A stretch of 34,947 nt of DNA from a virus, in UHGV virus genome UHGV-0162383; one strand, 5' to 3'. The stretch's first letter is position 1, and each line of letters opens with the position of its first letter. A model generated the notes under the pieces. It was not told where the DNA came from. It did no database searches and saw only the letters and a list, made by a program, of their open reading frames with translations. The translations under genes and the position numbers were made by a program. Of the stretch, positions 50 to 29,232 are shown piece by piece.

Positions 50-586
50 ATGCGTCGCGCTAACGATCCGCAACGGCGAGAAAAAATTATCCAGGCCACG
101 CTGGAGGCGGTGAAACTTTACGGAATACATGCTGTTACGCACCGCAAAATTGCTACCCTTGCCGGGGTACCGTTGGGATCGATGACCTACTATTTTTCAG
201 GAATTGATGAGTTGTTGCTGGAGGCGTTCAGCAGTTTTACTGAGATTATGTCCCGGCAATATCAGGCATTTTTTAGCGATGTTAGTGATGCTCAAGGCGC
301 ATGCCAGGCTATCACCGATATGATCTACAGCTCACAGGTTGCAACGCCGGATAATATGGAGCTGATGTACCAGCTCTACGCGCTGGCTAGCCGAAAACCG
401 CTATTAAAAACGGTAATGCAAAACTGGATGCAGCGCAGTCAGCAAACGCTCGAACAATGGTTTGAACCCGGAACCGCCCGCGCGCTTGATGCGTTTATTG
501 AGGGGATGACGCTGCATTTTGTCACCGACCGTAAGCCGCTATCGCGCGAGGAGATTTTGAGGATGGTTGAGAGGGTTGCAGGGTAG
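50..586 (+). CDS. TetR-family transcriptional regulator (host flank of the prophage)
   Basis: N-terminal HTH signature ([41 protein letters not shown]); ORF runs from 20 (TTG) but ATG at 50 with AGGAAA-type RBS is the more plausible start; host-like GC content. Confidence 0.8.
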
Positions 587-635
587 TAGATAAGTTTTAG
601 ATAACAAAAAACCCATTTATGTAAACGGGTTAATG

Positions 636-667
636 AAAACAATAAGTTAGAGTAAAAACAATAAGTT
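636..667. repeat. Tandem direct repeat AAAACAATAAGTT (x2, 6-bp spacer) next to the 3' end of int; candidate integrase arm-type sites / attL region
   Basis: Exact 13-bp repeat at 636-648 and 655-667, inside the 104-bp gap between the TetR stop and the int stop. Confidence 0.3.
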
Positions 668-690
668 GGGTTGGTGGTCAGTGGTGGTTA

Positions 691-1743
691 TTACGGGGTA
701 ATGCCAACCGCTGCCGCCACTTTGTCGCCACTTGGCAGCGTTGCCAGAGGATTGAAACGGAGCGCCGTTTCCAGATGATCCGGTGCCAGATGTGCGTAAC
801 GCATAGTCATTTTTATATCGTGGTGTCCGAGAATTTTTTGTAAGGCCAGAATGTTTCCACCCGACATCATGAAGTGCGCCGCAAACGTATGGCGCAGAAC
901 GTGTGTGAGTTGACCGCGAGGGAGCACGATAGACGTTTTTTCCATCACGGATAAAAATTGAAAATAGCAGTCTGTGAAGAAATTGAACCCATCAAGCGCC
1001 ATGATCTCTTCGTAAAGCTCTTTACTGATAGGGATGCTTCTGTTTTTCTTCCCCTTCGTTCTTACAAAGGTAATTCGGTATTTGGTCACCTGTGAACGAG
1101 TAAGATTTACGGCTTCTCGCCAGCGTGCGCCTGTGCTTAAGCATATCTTAACTACCAGTGCCAGAATTGGGTCCTGACGTTTGCAATCAGCCAGTAATTC
1201 AACAATCTGCTCATGGGTAAGCCATGCCATCTCTTTTTCTGCGATGGTGAATTTTCGCATGTTCTCCAGTGGGTTCGGATACGACCATTCGCCCAGGCGG
1301 GATAGTTCGCTAAAAACACTACTTAGATAGCTTTGCTCCAGGTTAATGGTGACCGGGCTTGCTCCTTTCTTCCATTTCTCGCTGAAGTAGATCTCACCTG
1401 TCAGGCGTTTATCTCGATAGTGGGCAAACATTTTAGAGGTTAGATCAGTTGCAAGGGGATTGCCCAGAGCGTCAACCATCAGCAGCAATTTGTCATAGAC
1501 ATGCTGCCCAGCTGTCAGTGATTTACCATGTAGTTTGAACCATAGCTCAACCACGTCTTTCAGTGTTCGACGATCCACTGATTCACCTAGCCAGGGCTTT
1601 GCTTCGGTTTCTTCCATCGTGTGACGCTCAAAAGCCAGTGCTTCGCCTTTGGTGGCGAATTGTTTACGCACACGACGTCCACTACGTCCGGCGGGGTAAC
1701 ATTCGCAAAGCCATTTTCCTGTGGTGAGTTTTCGTACTGCCAT
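691..1743 (-). CDS. int: Phage integrase, tyrosine recombinase (P2/186 Int family)
   Basis: 350 aa; C-terminal catalytic signature HVLRHTFAAHFMMSGGNILALQKILGHHDIKMTMRYAH (R..H..R..Y); N-terminus MAVRKLTTGKW...RKQFATKGEALAFE typical of P2/186 integrases; sits at the prophage end. Confidence 0.9.
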   Translation of the reverse strand: MAVRKLTTGKWLCECYPAGRSGRRVRKQFATKGEALAFERHTMEETEAKPWLGESVDRRTLKDVVELWFKLHGKSLTAGQHVYDKLLLMVDALGNPLATDLTSKMFAHYRDKRLTGEIYFSEKWKKGASPVTINLEQSYLSSVFSELSRLGEWSYPNPLENMRKFTIAEKEMAWLTHEQIVELLADCKRQDPILALVVKICLSTGARWREAVNLTRSQVTKYRITFVRTKGKKNRSIPISKELYEEIMALDGFNFFTDCYFQFLSVMEKTSIVLPRGQLTHVLRHTFAAHFMMSGGNILALQKILGHHDIKMTMRYAHLAPDHLETALRFNPLATLPSGDKVAAAVGITP

Positions 1744-1826
1744 AAAAAAGCCCTCATATCAGAGGGCTAAATTTAACTGTATATACAACCAGTAATCAAT
1801 GTGTGATTGCTATGAAACATACATTG

Positions 1827-3503
1827 CTAAGCAACATGTAGTTCATCGTTGGCGGAAGTGGCTGCTTTGCGTTCCTGCTCAATAGCTAGTGACTCTCTAT
1901 ATTCTTTCGCCTCTGCAAACATTGTCCAGTGGGCATTGATGTTCATATCTTCAATAACCGATTTAATTTCTTTAATATTTACGTTAAAAAACTCTTTTCG
2001 TGAGTTAATTTTATTGACCTGCTTTTCGTTGAAGACTTTATGCAGATGATTTTCTAATGACGGTGCATCATCACTATAAATCATCGCATGAACATCGAAC
2101 GAAAAAGGAACACTAGCATCCCCAAGTTCACGAACACGATCAAGTGGTTCAAGGCGGCGTGTCATTCCAATTTTATATACATCTTCGCCAAATGAGCCAA
2201 TATTGCTAATTATATAAACATGGCCTGATCTAGTTTGTTGAGCCATAGAAATAGCTCGTTGGTTTTTAGCTTCAGCTTCTTCATATTTTAACTGTAGTTC
2301 AGCTATTTTTTGCTCTAAAGCTAAGCGTTGTTCTTCATTTGCAAGCATAAGCTCTTTCGTTGCTTTATTTATAGCTTGCTGAATAGCTTTTTCTTCTTTT
2401 TCGGCTTCTTTTATCGCTTTTTCATACTCTCTACGAGCTCTTTCCTCTTCACGAAGCTGTTCTTTAATCCTTCTTTGCTCCTCTTTTTCTTCGAGCATAA
2501 TTTCATTAACTGCAACTCCCCATTTTAGCTCGTTGAGTCGTGCCTGAAGATAGATGTCACTTATTTTTGCGGATCTAAAAGCAGAGCCATTATAATTTAC
2601 AAGTTGAAATGCATCTTTTATTTCTTGGGAAAGTTTTCCAAAATTGTTGTGTTTGACTTTTGATAAAATACTGTCAACTCTTCCATTGAAGGCATCCAAA
2701 ACAAAGTTGATAGCAGTATTACGCCTGTTTTGCTCAACATAATCACACGAAGCTGCTTTATTAGTTTTTATTAATGATTTTGTTAACTCCCTGGCTTTTT
2801 GTAATTCCTTGCCTGCATCTGTAAACTCATAATTTTCTGCCAATTCATCAAGTACACTACGGTTAGGGATGATCCATTCATCGCCATAACCTTCAATTTT
2901 ATTTTTCATTGATTTGGCAACTGCTTCATATTTTTCTGCAAACTCTTTAGCTTCATATGCTGAACCAGCAATCTCTTTTGCTCTTTCTTCTGCATCGGAA
3001 ATAATTTTTACTGCGTTGTCATTAGCATTTGAGATCAGCTCATTTGCTTTACTGTTGGCATTATCAAGACGTTCTTTGGCTTTCAGGCGTGCATCGCGAG
3101 CGTCTTTGGTGATTGCTATAGCTTCGCTATTAGCGTTGCTTATTGTTATCTGAGCTTGATAACTTGCTTCGTTTACTGTCTTAGCTGCCTTTATTTGGGC
3201 TTCTTCTATTTTTTGCCTAGCTATTGAGTCTGCATTTTTTATCTTATTCTCTGCCTCCATCACTGCGCTGTGCAATTCTTCGTATTGCCATAATGGTGCT
3301 GCTCGCCCTTCAAGCTCTGATAGATCTCGTGCAGTCTGTGCTAACTTTTCTTGATTTTCACTCAGTTGGCTGGAAAGGGCTATGTTGTTAGCCGTCAGGT
3401 TATCTATGGCGGCTTTGTGTTCTTTACTTTGCTTAAATAATATTATAGCTAGAACAGGGGCGAGAAATGCTAATAAGAATATAACGATGGAAAATGAATT
3501 CAT
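1827..3503 (-). CDS. Membrane-anchored coiled-coil protein with DUF4041-like middle region and C-terminal T5orf172 (GIY-YIG-like) domain; cargo (moron) gene
   Basis: 558 aa; N-terminal hydrophobic helix (IVIFLLAFLAPVLAIILF), long A/E/K-rich heptad-like stretches, C-terminal GHVYIISN...VYKIGMT.R...R..E motif resembling GIY-YIG/T5orf172; strongly AT-rich compared with flanking int and cI. Confidence 0.6.
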   Translation of the reverse strand: MNSFSIVIFLLAFLAPVLAIILFKQSKEHKAAIDNLTANNIALSSQLSENQEKLAQTARDLSELEGRAAPLWQYEELHSAVMEAENKIKNADSIARQKIEEAQIKAAKTVNEASYQAQITISNANSEAIAITKDARDARLKAKERLDNANSKANELISNANDNAVKIISDAEERAKEIAGSAYEAKEFAEKYEAVAKSMKNKIEGYGDEWIIPNRSVLDELAENYEFTDAGKELQKARELTKSLIKTNKAASCDYVEQNRRNTAINFVLDAFNGRVDSILSKVKHNNFGKLSQEIKDAFQLVNYNGSAFRSAKISDIYLQARLNELKWGVAVNEIMLEEKEEQRRIKEQLREEERARREYEKAIKEAEKEEKAIQQAINKATKELMLANEEQRLALEQKIAELQLKYEEAEAKNQRAISMAQQTRSGHVYIISNIGSFGEDVYKIGMTRRLEPLDRVRELGDASVPFSFDVHAMIYSDDAPSLENHLHKVFNEKQVNKINSRKEFFNVNIKEIKSVIEDMNINAHWTMFAEAKEYRESLAIEQERKAATSANDELHVA

Positions 3504-3523: not shown

Positions 3524-4120
3524 TCAATTTGAAACTATTGTACTTCTTATACAAGCAACCACTTCAATATCAGAAAATGCACATTCAAAGCTATTCTCTG
3601 TAGTTGTAATTTTAATCATACCTTTTGGAAGCTTTGTGATTTTTCGAATGGAATAGGTTCCGTCGATGTTGATTAACCAGTGTCCATCAAGTACTTCAGA
3701 AAATTTTTGATCACAAATGTATGTGACAAGCCCATCCTGAATAACAATTGGTGATGAAAGATTTGCAGGAAGAAATGATGAATCGAATACATATGAACCA
3801 TCTTCAATCATTTTGCCTGCGGTAAGGCGAAACTTGGGAAGCTCTTCTGTGGCTACTGTCAGCGAGCTTTGCTTAAGTCCTTGCCCGGTGGTTAACCATT
3901 TCAGTGAGGTTCCTGTTTCAAGAGCACATTGGATTATCCAGTCTGCAGGAAACGTATCCCGCAAATACCTGTTCGCCAGAGTGCTTTTTGATACTTCCAA
4001 GTGATCAGCTAAAGCCTGTCGTGTCGTAAAGCCATAAGCTTCGACTAATCGCTCAATCGCAGCCTTACCACCTTTATTGGGATTTATTTTGATCTCACTT
4101 GGGTACTTTGATGTTGACAT
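3524..4120 (-). CDS. cI: Phage immunity repressor, 186 CI-like (HTH N-terminal domain)
   Basis: 198 aa; N-terminal HTH-like segment (YGFTTRQALADHLEVSKSTLANRYLRD); position immediately after int and divergent from apl/cII-like genes, as in 186. Confidence 0.75.
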   Translation of the reverse strand: MSTSKYPSEIKINPNKGGKAAIERLVEAYGFTTRQALADHLEVSKSTLANRYLRDTFPADWIIQCALETGTSLKWLTTGQGLKQSSLTVATEELPKFRLTAGKMIEDGSYVFDSSFLPANLSSPIVIQDGLVTYICDQKFSEVLDGHWLINIDGTYSIRKITKLPKGMIKITTTENSFECAFSDIEVVACIRSTIVSN

Positions 4121-10141: not shown

Positions 10142-10357
10142 ATGTCAAGCATCGCCGCATTTAGCCTGGGTAACCCAGTTGAACGTCTGGCAAGGGTTCT
10201 TAAAGAGAACCAGGACAAACTCAATCTTAGTAAAGATGGTTTTGTGTCCGTAGACTTGTCTAACAAAAGAGCAATGGATGCCATCAAGGCACAGATGGAT
10301 AAGCTTGAAGGCATCAAAACGAGCACTGTAAAAGAGAAAACTAATAGAACCAGATAA
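10142..10357 (+). CDS. Small soluble charged protein; first gene of a two-gene cargo operon
   Basis: 71 aa; strong RBS AGGGGGAG before ATG 10142; stop overlaps the downstream start (TAATG); AT-rich. Confidence 0.45.
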   Translation: MSSIAAFSLGNPVERLARVLKENQDKLNLSKDGFVSVDLSNKRAMDAIKAQMDKLEGIKTSTVKEKTNRTR

Positions 10358-11199
10358 TGGCAACATTACTTTTAGCAGTGATTTTGGTTAGTGGTTTTAT
10401 TTATGTAAACCTATCACTTTCAACAAGATACCGATATAAGCGTTCCAACGGCTGGGACGCTTATTTTTTTGTGGCTGCCTGGGGTATTGTTTTTTTTCTC
10501 CTTGGCGGTTTTTTCACCTTTATTTTGAACGTCAGCGGAGGGTTTCGTTGGCTGGCTAATGCCTTGAATCTAACACCTGACAGTTTTAATGGCATGTTGT
10601 CTTCATCGAAAGACAAACTTCAAAGAATAAATGAAATCAAACAGATAGCATGGGTTATGATTTCAATTGTCCTCGCTGCGATTTCAGGTTTTGGAAATAA
10701 GTTACGCACATCACGTGGAGATCGTCGCTGGGATGCCTTAGCTAAAGCTGTGGGTAATAACGCTTTCGAATCATTACTCATGGAAGCGTCCGCAAGACAG
10801 TTTCCGATCATAGCAACTCTGTCGTCTCGCAAAATCTATGTTGGTCTTGTTACTTGTCCGGCGTTAGAAAACGGGCTTTCAGAGCACCTTGAACTTCTCC
10901 CGATGTTAAGCGGATATCGGGATAAAGATGATCTAACGATTAGTATCACGACTAACTATCACCAACATTATCTTGATAGTGGTGTGATAAGTGGAATGTC
11001 TCGGCTTAATATCGAAGATTTCCGTGTGCTCATACCAAAAGATGAGGTTGAAACAATTTCGTTTTTTGATACTGAGACATATAACAAATTTAAAGAAAAT
11101 GAAGCCAGGGATAGAAAGAGCTGTCGAAAGATTGGTAGTAAAAGTGCATCTTCGCGCAGCAAGCGTGCAGCAGATGCTGAGTCAAATGATCGTGCATGA
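10357..11199 (+). CDS. Integral membrane protein (about 3 TM helices) with cytoplasmic C-terminal domain; second gene of the cargo operon
   Basis: 280 aa; hydrophobic segments near residues 3-17, 35-57 and 97-112, then a soluble domain of roughly 130 aa and a basic Ser/Arg/Lys-rich tail; translationally coupled to the upstream ORF; followed by an intrinsic terminator. Confidence 0.5.
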   Translation: MATLLLAVILVSGFIYVNLSLSTRYRYKRSNGWDAYFFVAAWGIVFFLLGGFFTFILNVSGGFRWLANALNLTPDSFNGMLSSSKDKLQRINEIKQIAWVMISIVLAAISGFGNKLRTSRGDRRWDALAKAVGNNAFESLLMEASARQFPIIATLSSRKIYVGLVTCPALENGLSEHLELLPMLSGYRDKDDLTISITTNYHQHYLDSGVISGMSRLNIEDFRVLIPKDEVETISFFDTETYNKFKENEARDRKSCRKIGSKSASSRSKRAADAESNDRA

Positions 11200-11455: not shown

Positions 11456-13237
11456 ATGAATTTTGATGCAACACCACTAAATATAAAAAACATTCTATCT
11501 GTAAAACAAAGATATGTTATTCCACGTAATCAACGTGAGTTTAGTTGGGAAAAGCTTCAGCTTGAAGAATTATGGCAAGATATTGTCAGAAACATAAGGT
11601 TGAATGAAGATGGACAGAACTTGGAGTGTTCAGAATATTTTATAGGGACTATTGTTCTTTCTGGAGCAGATAGTGATGATGTATTAGAAGTGGTTGATGG
11701 ACAACAACGATTTTCAGTTATTACTATATTGCTTTCATTAATATCGCGTAAATTGCGTTCCTTAGGGCAAGATTCATTAGCGGATGATATATTTAAAACA
11801 TATATCGTTACTGTGAGTCCTACATTTAGCAGAAGCCAATTAGCTTCAAATGGTGAGACATTTATTGAAAAATTAGCAAAAAATAGCGATAGAACATATT
11901 TTAAGTTAAAATATCAAGATCGCGAAGAGCATCAAGTTGATGAATCTTGTGAAGAAGATGTACGTATAAGTTATGCAGGAATTTTTCTTTCTAGAAAACT
12001 AGGGAGGAAATCACTCTGTTCTGCATTGTTGCGAGATGGTGCAAAACATTATAATAACCAAGATTATATATTTTGTTTGACTGCTGTATATAGAATGATT
12101 ACCAATTATTTGAAGTTGGTAAAAATATCTGTAGGTAAGGAGGATGATGCTTATGATATTTTTGAAGTGTTGAATGCTCGAGGGATAAACTTAAGTTCAA
12201 TTGATTTGATAAAGAATAAAGTATTCCAAACTTGCACTCAAACATATCCGGTAGATATTGCAAAAACAAAATGGGATTATATCGTTACTCAAATTGAGTC
12301 TAGGGATAGTAATAGCACTATTGCTGATTATATTAGAACGTGGTGGCTTTCTAAGTATAATTATATTGGAGAAGATCAACTTTATCGTGCTTTTAAACGT
12401 GAGATTCAAGATGAGAATACTTTATTGTCATCAGCATCATTTCTGAACGAATTATATGATGATGTTGAATTATACTGTAAAATAATAGCGCCAAATACAG
12501 ATGACTGGCCTCAACCTGATCAGCGTGAAATTTACAACTCGTTAAAAGCATTCGAGATTTTTAATGTGAGTATTCCTCGACCATTTGTACTCTCATTACT
12601 TAGAAAACGTAAAGAGAAACCGAGAGCCCTTACACAATCAATGCTGATAGAATGTTTGAAGTCCTTAGAGTCATTTCACTTTAAGTTTAATGCAGTATGT
12701 CGTCTAAGACCATCTGGAATCGATGCAAAATATTCTGTATTAGCAGTAAGAATGAATAAGGCATTAAATAAAAGAGATGTTGAGGGTGTTATTAATGACG
12801 CATTAGATTATTTTACACAGAAAGGGCCTTCAGAAAATATATTCAAACAAGCATTTTCAAAGAATATTGTTTATACAAATAAAAAGTCTGGGCAAAGGAA
12901 GTTGATTGTTTATATTTTTGACAAATTGGAACGTATCAGACGAGGGACGCGAGAGTTAAAAATGGATATAGTTTCTTTGGAACACATATCATCTCAAAGC
13001 AAAACTAACGAGTCAGTCGTGGGTATGATTGGTAATTTACTACCACTCTGTTTTTCACTTAATGAAGATTGCAAAAATTATGAGTTGCACAAAAAAATAG
13101 AATCTTATAAAAAATCTGATTTAAAATTAGTTACAGAGTTTGTTAGTGAGTCAGAAGCAAGAGAACATAAATGGGATGATTCATTAATAAAAGAAAGAAC
13201 AGATAGCTTGGCGTTAGAAACGTTTGCTAAAATATAA
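11456..13237 (+). CDS. DUF262/DUF1524 two-domain protein, GmrSD-like (type IV restriction-like) nuclease; cargo gene
   Basis: 593 aa; N-terminal DUF262/ParB-like motifs (IPRNQREFSWE and VVDGQQRFSV), C-terminal His-Me-finger-like motifs (SLEHISSQS ... GNLLPLCFSLNEDCKN); strongly AT-rich; RBS GAGGA before ATG 11456. Confidence 0.6.
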   Translation: MNFDATPLNIKNILSVKQRYVIPRNQREFSWEKLQLEELWQDIVRNIRLNEDGQNLECSEYFIGTIVLSGADSDDVLEVVDGQQRFSVITILLSLISRKLRSLGQDSLADDIFKTYIVTVSPTFSRSQLASNGETFIEKLAKNSDRTYFKLKYQDREEHQVDESCEEDVRISYAGIFLSRKLGRKSLCSALLRDGAKHYNNQDYIFCLTAVYRMITNYLKLVKISVGKEDDAYDIFEVLNARGINLSSIDLIKNKVFQTCTQTYPVDIAKTKWDYIVTQIESRDSNSTIADYIRTWWLSKYNYIGEDQLYRAFKREIQDENTLLSSASFLNELYDDVELYCKIIAPNTDDWPQPDQREIYNSLKAFEIFNVSIPRPFVLSLLRKRKEKPRALTQSMLIECLKSLESFHFKFNAVCRLRPSGIDAKYSVLAVRMNKALNKRDVEGVINDALDYFTQKGPSENIFKQAFSKNIVYTNKKSGQRKLIVYIFDKLERIRRGTRELKMDIVSLEHISSQSKTNESVVGMIGNLLPLCFSLNEDCKNYELHKKIESYKKSDLKLVTEFVSESEAREHKWDDSLIKERTDSLALETFAKI

Positions 13238-23922: not shown

Positions 23923-24520
23923 TCTGCTGCCACCGGGTTCAACGCCACTGGAGCGCCGACTGGCACAAACCTGCAGCGGGATTTCTGATTTGCAGGTGCC
24001 GCTACGTGACTTGTGGAATCCGGCGACCTGTCCGGTCAGTTTCCTGCCTTATCTCGCCTGGGCGTTCTCTGTGGATCGCTGGGACGAGGGCTGGACAGAA
24101 AGCGTCAAGCGCCAGGTGGTGAAGGATGCTTTTTATATTCATCAGCATAAAGGAACCACCAGTGCCGTGCGGCGGGTGGTGGAGCCGTTCGGCTTCCTGA
24201 TCCGCATTATTGAGTGGTGGCAGACCGGAGAAACACCGGGCACGTTTCGCCTGGATATCGGCGTGCAGGACCAGGGCATCACTGAAGATACCTATCTGGA
24301 ACTTGAGCGACTGATAAGCGATGCCAAACCATGTAGCCGTCACATGATCGGCATGTCTATCAATCTGCAGACCAGCGGCCCGCATTGGGTGGGAGCCGCC
24401 AGCTATCTTGGCGAAGAAATCACGATCTATCCGTATATCAACGAAACAATTATTTCCGGCGGCACCGCGCATGAAGGCGGGGCGGTCCATGTTATTGACA
24501 CAATGAGAGTGAATCCATGA
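23915..24520 (+). CDS. I: Baseplate/tail protein I
   Basis: 201 aa; synteny with P2 I. Confidence 0.8.
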
Positions 24521-25938
24521 GCACAAAATTTTATACCCTGCTGACGGATATTGGCGCGGCGAAACTTGCCAGCGCCGCCGCGCTCGGTGTGCCTTTAAAA
24601 ATTACCCATATGGCAGTCGGCGATGGCGGCGGAATATTGCCAACGCCGGACGCAAAGCAGACAGCACTGGTAAATGAGAAACGCCGGGCTGCGCTGAATA
24701 TGCTCTATATCGACCCGCAGAACAGCAGCCAGATTATTGCCGAACAGGTGATCCCTGAAAATGAGGGCGGTTGGTGGATCCGTGAAGTGGGCCTGTTTGA
24801 TGAGTCCGGGGCATTGATTGCCGTGGGTAACTGCCCGGAAAGCTATAAGCCGCAACTGGCTGAAGGCAGCGGGCGCACCCAGACCGTGCGCATGGTGCTG
24901 ATTACCAGCAGCACGGACAATATCACCCTGAAAATCGACCCTGCCGTCGTGCTGGCAACCCGCAAGTATGTGGATGACAAGGTACTGGAGCTGAAGGTGT
25001 TCGTGGATGATAAGATGGCAAAACATCTTGCCGCACCGGACCCGCATTCACAGTATGCACCCAAAGAAAGCCCGACATTGACCGGAACACCCAAAGCGCC
25101 AACGCCAGCGGAGGGGAATAACACCACGCAGATTGCGACCACCGCGTTTGTTCAGGCCGCTATTACTGCTCTGATTAACGGTGCGCCAGCCACGCTGGAC
25201 ACACTGAAAGAAATTGCCGCAGCCATTAACAATGACCCGAAATTCAGTACCACCATTAACAATGCGCTGGCACTAAAAGCACCGCTGTTGAGTCCGGCAC
25301 TCACCGGAACGCCAACAGCACCTACTGCGGCACAGTCGGTTAACAATACACAGATTGCCACCACGGCTTTTGTGAAATCGGCAATTGCGGCAATGGTGGG
25401 GTCTGCACCTGCTGCACTGGATACACTGAACGAACTGGCTGCGGCGCTGGGGAATGACCCGAACTTTGCCACGACAATGCTTAATGCACTGGCAGGTAAA
25501 CAACCGCTGGACAATACGCTGACTAATTTGAGTGGAAAGGATGTAGCTGGTCTTCTCACATACCTTGGTTTGGGAGAAGCGGCAAAACGAAATGTGGGAA
25601 CAGGGGAAAATCAGATACCGGACATGGCTTCATTTAGTGGGGTGAGGGATTATTACGGAAAACAACTTTTGCCAGGAGGGTTGATACTTCAGTGGCTGAC
25701 GATTCCATCAAGTGCAGCAGCCAAAGCTGTAACACTGAATAATGGTAATTATCAGCTGTCAGGCTATAAATGGCCCCAGTCATTTGGTGTCCTGTTTGCT
25801 GTGTTTGCTACAAAAGTTTCTGGCTCGACTAACGAAGCATATGCAATCTCAGTTAATCGTCACTCTACCGATGTAATTGTCACCTGGAATGCCCGTAAGG
25901 CTGATGATGTCCACATTTTAGGAATTGGGAAATTATGA
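24517..25938 (+). CDS. H: Tail fibre protein H (current orientation); constant N-terminal part fused to variable C-terminal part
   Basis: 473 aa; N-terminus [39 protein letters not shown] typical of P2-like H; two internal ~70-aa repeats; recombination site within the gene at 25553-25578. Confidence 0.85.
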
Positions 25939-26354
25939 AAATGAAATGGTCCCCATCTGTTCAGGGATTTTTCTCTGAAAATAACAGCGATATTCCCGAT
26001 GATGCTTTCGATATTGAAGATGCTCTTTATTATGAACTTATGAATGGTCAGAGTACGGGGAAAATTATTATCAATAACCCGGATAACTACCCTGTACTTA
26101 CTGAATATCCAGCGAAGACACAGGAACAGGAAATAGCTGAAGCGGAGGGAATGAAAAGTATACTTATTGAACAGGCCAACGAATACATGAACAGTAAGCA
26201 ATGGCCTGGTAAAGCCGCTATTGGTCGTCTGAAAGGTGAGGAACTGGCGCAATATAATTTGTGGCTGGATTACCTGGACGCACTGGAACTGGTCGATACT
26301 TCCGGTGCGCCAGATATTGAATGGCCTACGCCTCCGGCAGTTCAGGCCAGATGA
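25935..26354 (+). CDS. G: Tail fibre assembly chaperone G (current orientation)
   Basis: 139 aa immediately downstream of H with ATGA overlap; typical tail-fibre-assembly position. Confidence 0.7.
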
Positions 26355-26589
26355 CGTCCGACGCGGTGCTGGTATCTGATTCCATCACCGCGTCGATATT
26401 ACCAACATCATATTCAGTCATTTCCGGTTCCGGTAGTGCTATAAACTCTCCGTCAGAATAGAACCAACCGACGCCTGCATCTATATGATCAATATTTATA
26501 ATTTCGCAGTTAGAGAATAAATCACCCTCTCCATCCCAGATAATAATATTTTTCACCACGCCATGTTCAATCAGAGCAAAATTACTCAT
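26326..26589 (-). CDS. Alternative tail fibre assembly/chaperone gene, inverted orientation (used after segment inversion)
   Basis: 87 aa ORF on the opposite strand inside the invertible segment, immediately downstream of the alternative fibre tip ORF. Confidence 0.5.
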   Translation of the reverse strand: MSNFALIEHGVVKNIIIWDGEGDLFSNCEIINIDHIDAGVGWFYSDGEFIALPEPEMTEYDVGNIDAVMESDTSTASDVIWPELPEA

Positions 26590-27282
26590 CAGGCATACTC
26601 CTCAACAATAACTATTCCCGGGGCACCGTCACCTCCCGATTGAGCCTCACTTCCGGCAGATGCGCAGGCTCCGCCTCCGCCAGCACCAAAGCCCTCAGCT
26701 TTACCACCACCACGTCCGCTGAATGATGAAGAACTTGCACCACCTATACCGCCTGAACCTAGTGGTGTATCCCCCCCGGTACCACCTGCAACAGCTTTAA
26801 CAGAGATAACCATTGCTCCTGGTGTTTTTGCACTACAGCGAAATGCTCTTAGTACAGTACCGGACGATGTCGGACTGGCACCCCATGAAATACCCTGAAT
26901 ATATGATGTGTTTGCAGATGCTCCCCCCGCGCCACCGCCTGTACCACCCGGTGCAGTTATCAGGGAACCGAAATAAGTTGTGCCACCTTCACTACCTGAA
27001 TTTCTTCCGGCTCCCCCCCCTTTACCTGCAGCACCGATAATAACGTTGACTTCGAAATCATTATCAACCTCGAAAAATGCTTCAATAAATGCACCGCTCA
27101 ATCCAGCTCCGGCTGTTGCCTGCTGATTTTCTGTTGTTTCAGGAACCCCACCGCCGCCGCCACCGCCACCAGAGGCAATGACCCTTATCTTTTTTGTCCC
27201 TGGTGTTGGGATATATTTTCCAGAGCTTTTAAAAATATTCGTGTTTAACAAACGACCAGAGAATCTGGCTTCTCCCAAACCA
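26589..27282 (-). CDS. Alternative tail fibre C-terminal (receptor-binding) segment, glycine-rich; no own start, expressed only after inversion
   Basis: Open frame on the minus strand runs from the crossover site to 26589; Gly-rich tracts (GGGGGGGG, GGTGGGAGG); shares the site-encoded GLGEA residues with the current H junction. Confidence 0.65.
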
Positions 27283-27350
27283 ACGTTTATGAAAATGCAG
27301 AGATAACGGCTAACTGGCATCATCTCCGGTTTTTATTCAGGGGAATGATC

Positions 27351-27917
27351 ATGCTTATTGGCTATGTACGCGTGTCAACAAATGACCAGAACACCGATTT
27401 GCAACGCAATGCACTGAACTGTGCGGGATGTGAGCGGATTTTTGAGGATAAAATCAGTGGCACCAAGTCCGACAGACCGGGGCTGAAAAAGCTGCTCAGG
27501 ACACTATCGGCAGGAGACACGCTGGTTGTCTGGAAGCTGGACAGACTGGGGCGCAGTATGCGGCATCTTGTTACGCTGATAGAAGAGCTGCGCCAGCGTG
27601 GCGTAAATTTCCGAAGCCTGACTGACAGTATTGATACCAGCACCCCAATGGGCCGTTTCTTTTTTCATGTCATGGGTGCCCTGGCTGAAATGGAACGCGA
27701 ACTGATAGTTGAACGTACCAGGGCGGGGCTGGCTGCAGCTCGTGCTAAAGGCAGAGTAGGTGGACGCCGTCCTAAGTTGACCAGCGAACAGTGGGCACAG
27801 ATTGGGCGTTTACTCGAGGCCGGAGAATCAAGACAGCGTATTGCACTGATTTTTGATGTAGGCGTTTCTACCATTTATCGAAAATTTCCGGCAAATAAGA
27901 ACAATAAATCTCCCTGA
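27351..27917 (+). CDS. Site-specific DNA invertase, serine recombinase (Hin/Gin/Cin/Pin family)
   Basis: MLIGYVRVSTNDQNTDLQRNAL...VVWKLDRLGRS...DSIDTSTPMGRFFFHVMGALAEMERELIVERT: resolvase/invertase catalytic domain with Ser in YVRVST plus C-terminal HTH; an alternative ATG lies at 27345. Confidence 0.9.
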   Translation: MLIGYVRVSTNDQNTDLQRNALNCAGCERIFEDKISGTKSDRPGLKKLLRTLSAGDTLVVWKLDRLGRSMRHLVTLIEELRQRGVNFRSLTDSIDTSTPMGRFFFHVMGALAEMERELIVERTRAGLAAARAKGRVGGRRPKLTSEQWAQIGRLLEAGESRQRIALIFDVGVSTIYRKFPANKNNKSP

Positions 27918-27965: not shown

Positions 27966-27983
27966 TGTGTGAATAACGGTACA
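27966..27983. promoter_or_regulatory. TGT-N12-ACA dyad (late-activator site) upstream of the sheath gene
   Basis: TGTgtgaataacggtACA, centre about 85 bp upstream of the FI ATG; very similar to the dyad upstream of O. Confidence 0.5.
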
Positions 27984-28059: not shown

Positions 28060-29232
28060 ATGGCTCAGGATTACCACCACGGGGTGCGCGTTGTTGAAGT
28101 CAACGAAGGCACCCGATCTATTACCACGGTGAGCACCGCCATCGTGGGTATGGTCTGCACGGGCGATGATGCCGATGCAAAAATGTTTCCTCTTAATAAA
28201 CCCGTGCTGATCACTGATGTGCTGACTGCCAGCGGTAAAGCGGGTGAGTCCGGTACTCTGGCCCGTTCGCTGGATGCCATCGCTGACCAGGCAAAACCCG
28301 TGACCATTGTTGTGCGTGTGCCGCAGGGTGAAACGGAAGACGAAACCACGACCAATATCATCGGCGCAGTGACTGCTGAAGGTAAAAAAACAGGTATGAA
28401 AGCCCTGTTATCTGCCCAGTCACAGCTCGGCGTTAAACCGCGCATTCTCGGCGTGCCAGGCCACGACACCAAGGCGGTAGCTACTGAGTTGCTGAGCGTG
28501 GCGCAAAGCCTGCGTGGATTTGCTTACCTGTCAGCGTATGGCTGCAAGACAGTGCAGGAGGCGATCACTTACCGCGAAAACTTCAGCCAGCGTGAAGGGA
28601 TGCTGATCTGGCCTGACTTTACTGGCTGGGACACGGTGCTGAATGCCGAAGCAACGGCATATGCCACCGCCCGTGCGCTTGGTCTGCGCGCCAAAATTGA
28701 CGAGCAGACCGGATGGCACAAAAGCCTGTCCAATGTGGGCGTGAACGGTGTCACCGGAATTTCTGCAGATGTGTTCTGGGATCTGCAGGACCCGGCAACC
28801 GATGCAGGTCTGCTGAACCAGAACGACGTCACCACGCTTGTGCGTAAAGACGGTTTCCGCTTCTGGGGGTCCCGCTGCCTGAGTGATGACCCGCTCTTTG
28901 CCTTCGAAAACTACACCCGCACGGCGCAGGTGCTGACGGACACGATGGCAGAAGCACACATGTGGGCGGTGGATAAACCGCTTAACCCGTCGCTGGCCCG
29001 CGACATTATCGAAGGTATCCGCGCCAAAATGCGCAGCCTGGTCAGTCAGGGCTATCTCATTGGTGGTGATTGCTGGCTGGATGAGTCGGTGAACGACAAA
29101 GACACGCTGAAAGCCGGAAAACTCACCATCGACTACGACTACACGCCAGTGCCGCCACTTGAAAACCTGATGCTGCGTCAGCGCATCACCGATCAGTACC
29201 TGGTGAATTTCGCCAGCCAGGTCAGCGCGTAA
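28060..29232 (+). CDS. FI: Tail sheath protein FI
   Basis: 390 aa; N-terminus [34 protein letters not shown] typical of P2-family sheath proteins. Confidence 0.9.

Follow-up and report, generated by a model that had tools for sequence, protein, structure and literature searches.

The window analyzed here, i.e. the whole 34,947-nucleotide stretch of the UHGV virus genome UHGV-0162383, is assigned from its gene order to a P2-like (Peduoviridae) prophage and very likely carries a Gin/Cin-type inversion switch that exchanges the receptor-binding C-terminus of its tail-fibre protein H. The locus shows a compact architecture: two inverted recombination sites, the left one within the coding sequence of H, enclose a segment with two alternative fibre tips that are encoded on opposite strands, each followed by its own assembly gene, and a gene for a serine DNA invertase follows immediately beyond the right site (Table 1). 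The DNA exchanged by inversion between the site cores is 25567-27281, i.e. ~1.7 kb. Both states of this segment are found in natural genomes, including pairs of assemblies or derivatives of a single strain that differ solely by the inversion.

Architecture of the invertible segment

The sites were recovered in a repeat search as inverted arms (25553-25580 and 27268-27295; 28 nt, 86% complementary, 1687 nt apart) that share 16 bp of perfect identity. They show the organization typical of invertase systems, with imperfect 12-bp half-sites around an identical 2-bp core: the central TT and the inner half-sites are identical between the two 26-bp sites, whereas the outer half-sites differ. A pattern derived from the sites has two matches in the window, namely the sites themselves, and none in 100 shuffles. 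A generic hix/gix-type consensus (TTNTCNNAAACCNNGGTTTNNGANAA), which was compared with the gix sequences of phage Mu, likewise matched only these two sites, with one mismatch each, and found nothing in 100 shuffles. An earlier note, made from the sequence alone, had described two inverted hix/gix-like sites around about 1.7 kb, and this description holds, with both sites being unique in the window. In the Mu record gix reads TTATCCAAAACC-TC-GGTTTACAGGAA, which is similar in layout to the window sites. A shufflon, which would have more than two sites, was ruled out, as the two sites stand alone in the window even at three mismatches.

The reading frame is maintained across the recombination event. 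Position 25565 is the second codon position of H and 27282 the third codon position of the minus-strand open reading frame (ORF), and inversion between the cores fuses H codon 349/350 to that ORF. Inversion in silico gives an uninterrupted 580-aa product (H') for any cut within the repeat, and GLGEA is encoded at both junctions, one of which reads NVGLGEARFS. The frame arithmetic of the earlier note, together with GLGEA at both junctions, was recomputed and found correct; the outcome it named as refuting, a minus-strand ORF out of frame on precise site alignment, is not seen, as the fusion is open over 580 aa. Hence, a constant fibre part lies outside the segment and two opposed alternative C-termini, both in frame, lie inside it. 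The similarity of other P2-like H genes ends at query nucleotides 1048-1062, i.e. at the left site, and RefSeq annotates both forms of the protein: 473 aa in Escherichia coli Ec1117, which has the state of the window, and 580 aa in E. coli UC4316.

Both orientations in public genomes

The window state aligns with E. coli Ec1117 over the full 3,544 nt of the region at 99.5% identity, and the sequence flipped in silico aligns with E. coli 89-3156 over 100% of these 3,544 nt, in a single piece and at 99.3% identity; the invertases of both strains are 100% identical to that of the window. Flips are also seen within single strains. The ATCC 8739 assemblies NC_010468.1 and NZ_CP033020.1 differ solely by the inversion, and the same is true of UC4315 and UC4316, which their records describe as mutants of UC4224, i.e. 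laboratory derivatives. In these isogenic pairs the flanks are 99.97-100% identical, the interior is reverse-complemented, and the invertases are 97.9% identical to the window's. In UC4316 the glycine-rich tip is fused to H, and the length annotated for this fusion is the predicted one. A census of the 5,426 complete E. coli genomes, with 400-nt junction sequences as queries, found 16 in which the glycine-rich tip is fused to H and 17 in which it adjoins the invertase side, a near-1:1 ratio that would be the expectation for a freely flipping segment. As for the possibility that populations hold only one orientation, both states are found in near-identical prophages and within single strains. 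In one further genome, E. coli 214-4 (NZ_CP025840.1), the glycine-rich switch occurs twice, at ~18086 and 5123177, ~33 kb apart across the origin of the record and in opposite orientations, which suggests tandem P2-like prophages flipping independently.

These comparisons bear directly on the possibility that the locus is a frozen relic, with intact sites, cassettes and invertase but no flipping here (e.g. with the invertase unexpressed), so that the minus-strand cassette would be a silent fossil. The promoter scan, whose promoter and terminator counts are near those of shuffled sequence and thus give weak hints only, did show no sigma-70-like promoter for the invertase gene, which would suit a relic. 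We nevertheless judge this unlikely in view of the two strains in which an identical invertase adjoins this segment in opposite states, the flips within strains that have closely similar invertases, the balanced on:off census (16:17), and the intact ORFs of the silent cassette with their coupled start and stop codons. The switch is real and very probably active.

The ATCC 8739 pair also delimits the place of exchange. Its inner half-sites differ at site position 26 (G/A), and this base follows the segment on inversion, whereas the outer half-sites keep their places; therefore, the exchange must have occurred within site positions 13 to 25, the TT core included. Could the observed inversions have been made by RecA-dependent recombination between short inverted repeats rather than by the invertase? 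The perfect 16-bp identity between the arms is of a kind that this would exploit, and the enzyme cannot be named from sequence comparison alone. However, 16 bp is shorter than what RecA needs for efficient exchange, the crossovers fall within 13 bp containing the core, the gene of a cognate Gin-type invertase is adjacent, as is an enhancer-like element, and the same sites recur with different cassettes. We therefore regard a RecA origin as extremely improbable.

Table 1. Coordinates of the fibre switch and adjoining features in the window
Feature	Position	Strand	Remarks
Tail-fibre gene H	24517-25938	+	473 aa; PF12571
H constant N-terminal part	24517-25564	+	349 codons; outside the segment; PF12571 Phage_tail_fib E=1.7e-64; PHROG 327/6202 tail fibre
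Left site	25553-25578	+	TTCTCACATACC-TT-GGTTTGGGAGAA; core TT 25565-25566; inside H coding sequence (…YLGLGEA…)
Tip A	25567-25938	+	current C-terminal 123 aa of H; ORF 24517-25938
tfa (assembly gene of tip A)	25935-26354	+	139 aa; PF02413 Caudo_TAP E=2.6e-23; PHROG 188 E=2.3e-51
Mini-Tfa (for tip B)	26326-26589	-	87 aa; ATG overlaps tip B stop; overlaps tfa(+) 3' end by 29 bp
GC-rich hairpin	26359-26395		tail-to-tail cassette junction, within shared tfa 3' end; fold -24.1 kcal/mol, z=-2.85
Tip B (silent glycine-rich fibre tip)	26589-27281	-	~230 aa; PF21722 Gly_rich_2 E=1.7e-7; PHROG 6202 C-terminus E=1.4e-54
Glycine-rich ORF	26589-27323	-	PF21722; runs past right site
Right site	27270-27295	-	reverse complement TTTTCATAAACG-TT-GGTTTGGGAGAA; core 27282-27283
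Terminator-like hairpin, then TTTTATT	27312-27331	+	between segment and invertase gene; consensus match only
Serine DNA invertase (Gin/Cin/Pin/Hin family)	27351-27917	+	188 aa; catalytic Ser9 in YVRVSTNDQ; C-terminal HTH
Probable recombinational enhancer	27369-27440	+	equivalent position to P1 enhancer; Fis-like 15-mers
Sheath gene FI	at 28060	+	after invertase gene

The invertase and its probable enhancer

The invertase has the domain organization that defines its family, i.e. a small serine recombinase with an N-terminal catalytic domain (PF00239, E=2.3e-53) and a C-terminal helix-turn-helix (PF02796, E=5.8e-16). It is recovered by PHROG 125 (DNA invertase, E=2e-101) and aligns end to end, including the catalytic motif, with the Gin structure 3uj3 (E=1.1e-92; also 4m6f) in PDB, while NCBIfam gave sub-threshold recombinase matches alone. 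Its identity is 73% with Gin and 77% with Cin (79% with P1 cin by tblastn), within the ~60-80% that characterized invertases share with one another. Thus, a Hin/Gin-family invertase does lie just outside the right site, as had been recognized earlier, though the start first given for it, 27345, needs correction: the alignment with Gin begins at the third residue of this longer ORF (MLIGYVRVSTNDQ…), and the start is therefore most likely 27351, which RefSeq also annotates in near-identical loci.

The 5' end of the gene probably contains a recombinational enhancer, as suggested by two Fis-like G-N13-C 15-mers at 27372-27386 (GTGTCAACAAATGAC) and 27421-27435 (GTGCGGGATGTGAGC). These correspond to nucleotides 22-36 and 71-85 of the gene and coincide with the Cin enhancer, which spans nucleotides 19-90 of cin in the P1 record; both 15-mers are conserved in Mu gin. 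The distance from the putative enhancer to the right-site core is ~97 bp, as compared to ~95 bp in Mu. As this stretch also encodes the catalytic N-terminus, and its synonymous positions are not unusually conserved, we grade the element as consistent with the model but not as independently established. By analogy with Mu and P1, inversion would be expected to depend on Fis and this enhancer.

The alternative tips and their assembly genes

The two cassettes follow the same plan, in that tip A is succeeded by a Caudo_TAP gene above the Pfam threshold and tip B by an 87-aa Tfa-like ORF. Tip A and its 139-aa Tfa form a common pair that is found e.g. in phage Cartapus and the LF82 prophage, and the ATG of tfa overlaps the stop codon of H (ATGA). 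In RefSeq names from related loci the silent copy of tip A is termed 'gp53-like domain' by NCBI. NCBIfam has no model for the fibre parts, and PDB sequence searches returned nothing significant for the 87-aa ORF or for either tip.

Tip B is a genuine fibre domain. Beyond its profile matches, its AlphaFold2 model (pLDDT 88.5) recovered the fibre of cyanophage Pam3 (7ypx, 7yfw) and the tail tip of Bxb1 (9d93) in Foldseek, with E=8e-8 to 4e-6 and TM scores of 0.5-0.6; the glycine-rich domain of ALK/LTK is a weaker and more distant fold match. The predicted fold of tip B is hence like that of glycine-rich fibre domains (PF21722, Pam3, Bxb1) and of ALK/LTK at a sequence identity of 21-26%, but, unlike tip B, the proteins of Pam3, Bxb1 and ALK/LTK occur outside any inversion switch. 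Runs of G8, G7 and G6 are present in the tip.

The minus-strand ORF had been called start-less by the earlier note. That it is an opposite-strand glycine-rich ORF stands, but strictly start-less it is not: it reads on past the right site for 13 codons, as far as an in-frame ATGATG (27318-27323) that lies outside the segment, and RefSeq annotates the corresponding 244-aa ORF in the related strain UC4315. This ATGATG is in frame with the silent tip in either orientation, and RefSeq ORFs of this kind are found in ATCC 8739 and UC4315. The Mu record has an equivalent out-of-segment start, with Mup52 beginning 28 nt beyond the G boundary. Upstream of the window's ORF a GGAG abuts the ATG directly, a poor spacing, and the promoter scan found no promoter-like site reading leftwards into the silent tip.

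Such a start raises the possibility that the switch mainly serves the lysogen, with one orientation making a fibre-derived protein that blocks receptors against other phages, perhaps via the ATGATG. A precedent is the recombinase-activated adsorption block by PinQ/StfE2 of the e14 element (PMC12529663), and both the persistence of the in-frame start in the two orientations and the other defence cargo in the window would fit it. On the other hand, the unfavourable spacing of the GGAG and the lack of a promoter-like site in the scan speak against translation and transcription of a free tip, and since the prophage looks complete its fibre genes have an ordinary structural role; moreover, such a function would add to a host-range switch and not replace it. 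We hence consider it quite improbable as the main role of the system. Unlikely as well is the broader proposal that the glycine-rich cassette offers something beyond a second host-range option, i.e. a minimal Tfa or a free receptor-blocking tip protein in lysogens.

The 87-aa ORF downstream of tip B encodes a shortened, Tfa-derived protein (mini-Tfa), because an N-terminal domain and a C-terminal motif align with Tfa while ~45 central residues are absent, the match being under the Pfam threshold. The Caudo_TAP protein encoded behind a distant glycine-rich fibre (locus L012, see below) aligns with its N-terminal 55 aa, the identity being 43% overall, and mini-Tfa ends with the Tfa C-terminal motif. 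The comparison with the Caudo_TAP profile gives E=0.014 and 16 bits, under the 22.1 threshold of Pfam, and BLASTP against the tfa(+) product gives E=5e-4. Thus, the small downstream ORF that had been presented as a chaperone is a Tfa homologue and no unrelated chaperone, but not a full Tfa, and its chaperone role is putative.

The distant glycine-rich fibres (~39% identity) of other prophages have a normal Caudo_TAP gene directly after them. In two such loci (L010 and L012, around P0054 and P0103) these fibres end Mu-type baseplate modules, and the Caudo_TAP gene is in turn followed by gtrA/gtrB/glucosyltransferase O-antigen modification genes in a layout as in serotype-converting phages. The name 'carbohydrate kinase', which some sources give to these fibres, is a misnomer.

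The two assembly genes meet tail to tail with an overlap at 26326-26354, in which WP is encoded on either strand by TGGCCT. By blastn, the final 72-80 nt of the gene for mini-Tfa share ~91% identity with the tfa 3' ends of HK97, SfIV, pro483 and KP12, hence of lambdoid, SfIV-like and P2-like phages, and 26326-26405 looks like a shared linker for cassette exchange. Among 50,697 phage records, blastn with the DNA of cassette B matched only this shared 3' end, and tblastn with tip B gave no match, to which the low-complexity filter may contribute. The glycine-rich tip with mini-Tfa is present in about 33 of the complete E. coli genomes, and this cassette has been seen only in prophages so far.

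Proposed mechanism and its weak points

Taken together with the known Gin and Cin systems, these features lead to the following model. Dimers of the invertase would bind both 26-bp sites, and host Fis would bind the enhancer within the 5' end of the invertase gene. Both sites would then be cut at the central TT, the half-complexes would turn by 180 degrees, and religation would leave 25567-27281 inverted. In the orientation of the window the late operon is predicted to express H with the 123-aa tip A along with the 139-aa Tfa, whereas after inversion it would express the 349 N-terminal codons of H joined to the ~230-aa tip B, and then the 87-aa shortened Tfa. A lysogen population would therefore release two kinds of virion with different fibres, probably directed at different receptors. 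A change of host range on inversion is what we infer from this arrangement.

Several points weigh against such an active host-range switch. Flipping in this very host is deduced from relatives. Third codon positions show no excess of identity in the enhancer stretch (10-11/24) over the remainder of the gene (42-44/103). A fibre with tip B might assemble poorly, given that its shortened Tfa lacks ~45 central residues. Finally, 89-3156, the only near-identical (99%) flipped relative, is annotated as frameshifted. Decay of its H' was rejected as the explanation, all seven indels being 1-nt deletions in homopolymer runs; these deletions probably reflect errors of long-read sequencing, and neither decay nor switching by slippage.

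Comparison with known inversion systems

The earlier note had proposed a switch of the Mu G / P1 C type, and the recombinase, the inverted sites, the in-frame fusions and the paired assembly genes of that model are all found here, while the effect on host range would follow from the likeness. As in Mu G/Gin and P1 C/Cin, one of the sites has the invertase gene directly beside it on the outer side, the half-sites of the 26-bp sites are patterned alike, and a constant N-terminal fibre part is combined with two convergent C-terminal parts, each with an assembly gene; the enhancer of Mu and P1, in the 5' end of the invertase gene and about 95-97 bp from the site, has its putative equivalent in the window. 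Differences are equally clear: the segment, at 1.7 kb, is shorter than that of Mu (3 kb) or P1 (4.2 kb), the sites have TT as core dinucleotide rather than the TC/GA of gix, the window tips are unrelated to S/S', one of the assembly genes encodes a shortened 87-aa Tfa, and the host phage is P2-like.

Parallels are also provided by the switches of other P2-like phages and prophages (EPEC E2348/69, Fels-2/Fin, Cartapus, pro483, 500465-1, KP12), which share the location between H and FI, i.e. the Z/fun position, and the same sites, and whose invertases are 88-98% identical to the window's; a DNA invertase is annotated in Cartapus, pro483, 500465-1 and KP12. Cartapus and LF82-type prophages share both the H constant part and the tip A/Tfa pair with the window, but the combination of cassettes differs, and not one of the 50,697 phage records contains the glycine-rich tip with mini-Tfa. 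About 2,980 of the 5,426 E. coli genomes match the 3.5-kb region at least in part, be it in H, the segment or the invertase. Reproducible phase variation has been reported in two P2-like EPEC prophages, one of them a two-state switch (Goldberg et al., PMC4272514), and Fels-2/Fin of Salmonella is attributed to Kutsukake 2006 as cited there. Egorov et al. (bioRxiv 10.1101/2024.10.15.618418) likewise describe a DNA invertase as a frequent occupant of the P2 Z/fun hotspot, where the genes next to it are inverted.

A further relative is the P segment/PinE system of e14 (together with PinQ and PinR), which likewise has a Hin-family invertase, an stf-type fibre gene that is alternately fused and tfa genes within the segment; consistent with this, some matches to the window segment are annotated pinE and tfaE. 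Unlike the window prophage, e14 is a defective lambdoid element, and the defence role of StfE2 was reported for e14 (PMC12529663).

Implications for annotation and function

P2-like prophages with invertible fibre segments have been described before, hence the novelty of the locus is low: it is an ordinary case of a well-known mechanism, the current understanding of which is unchanged. Only mildly unusual are the shortened Tfa, the prophage-only glycine-rich cassette and the ATG beyond the segment from which the silent tip can be read in frame. What the window adds is one more cassette pair to the known modular repertoire of P2-like fibre switches, with a gp53-like tip plus Tfa set against a glycine-rich tip plus mini-Tfa. 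In terms of annotation, the locus, currently labelled 'phage tail protein / hypothetical protein / recombinase family protein', should be labelled as a phase-variable tail fibre with two tips, and the 'truncated' or 'start-less' fibre genes found here in assemblies are not pseudogenes. The glycine-rich cassette might be of use in engineering the host range of P2-like phages or tailocins. If mini-Tfa is sufficient for fibre assembly, it would represent a minimal Tfa that consists of a fibre-specific N-domain and the shared C-terminal motif; if the silent-tip ORF is expressed in lysogens, it would supply a free tip protein that could block receptors in the manner of StfE2/PinQ.

Prophage setting and neighbouring genes

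The prophage looks complete, and its assignment to the P2-like group draws on several lines of comparison. Klebsiella phage KP12 and Escherichia phage vB_EcoM-813R9 match 84-86% of window positions 1-24000 at 96-97% identity. In an E. coli locus of 99% identity, RefSeq annotates the P2 order, from baseplate genes V, W, J and I through the fibre gene to sheath, tube and tape measure; this agrees with the order V-W-J-I-H-G … FI-FII-E-T-U-D of Peduoviridae, in which G and FI are separated by a variable hotspot. The P2 reference record has fun(Z), without an invertase, between G and FI, which agrees with the earlier statement that plain P2 lacks the switch. The location of the module in this G-to-FI, Z/fun-type hotspot was also rightly recognized, but the invertase module itself is common in P2-likes and not peculiar to the window.

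A TGT-N12-ACA motif (TGTGTGAATAACGGTACA) at 27966-27983, ~80 bp upstream of the sheath gene FI, is presumably a match to the P2 Ogr-type late-promoter activator site, and an activator site is annotated in the P2 record at the equivalent place. The invertase module therefore separates the end of the H-G operon from the F promoter.

Two further P2-like hotspots are occupied by defence genes. The third such hotspot, flanked by the integrase (691-1743) on one side and the CI repressor (3524-4120) on the other, holds a minus-strand gene (1827-3503) for a 558-aa PD-Lambda-1 defence protein with DUF4041 and T5orf172 domains (PADLOC E=7e-120). The old/tin hotspot of P2, between the replication gene and the portal gene, holds a plus-strand gene (11456-13237) for a 593-aa GmrSD-type type IV restriction protein with PF03235 and PF07510 (PADLOC HEC-06/Orf5, E=7e-75); a 280-aa ORF beside it (10357-11199) has no match in Pfam or PADLOC. 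At the left end of the window, 20-586 is a TetR-family gene of the host.

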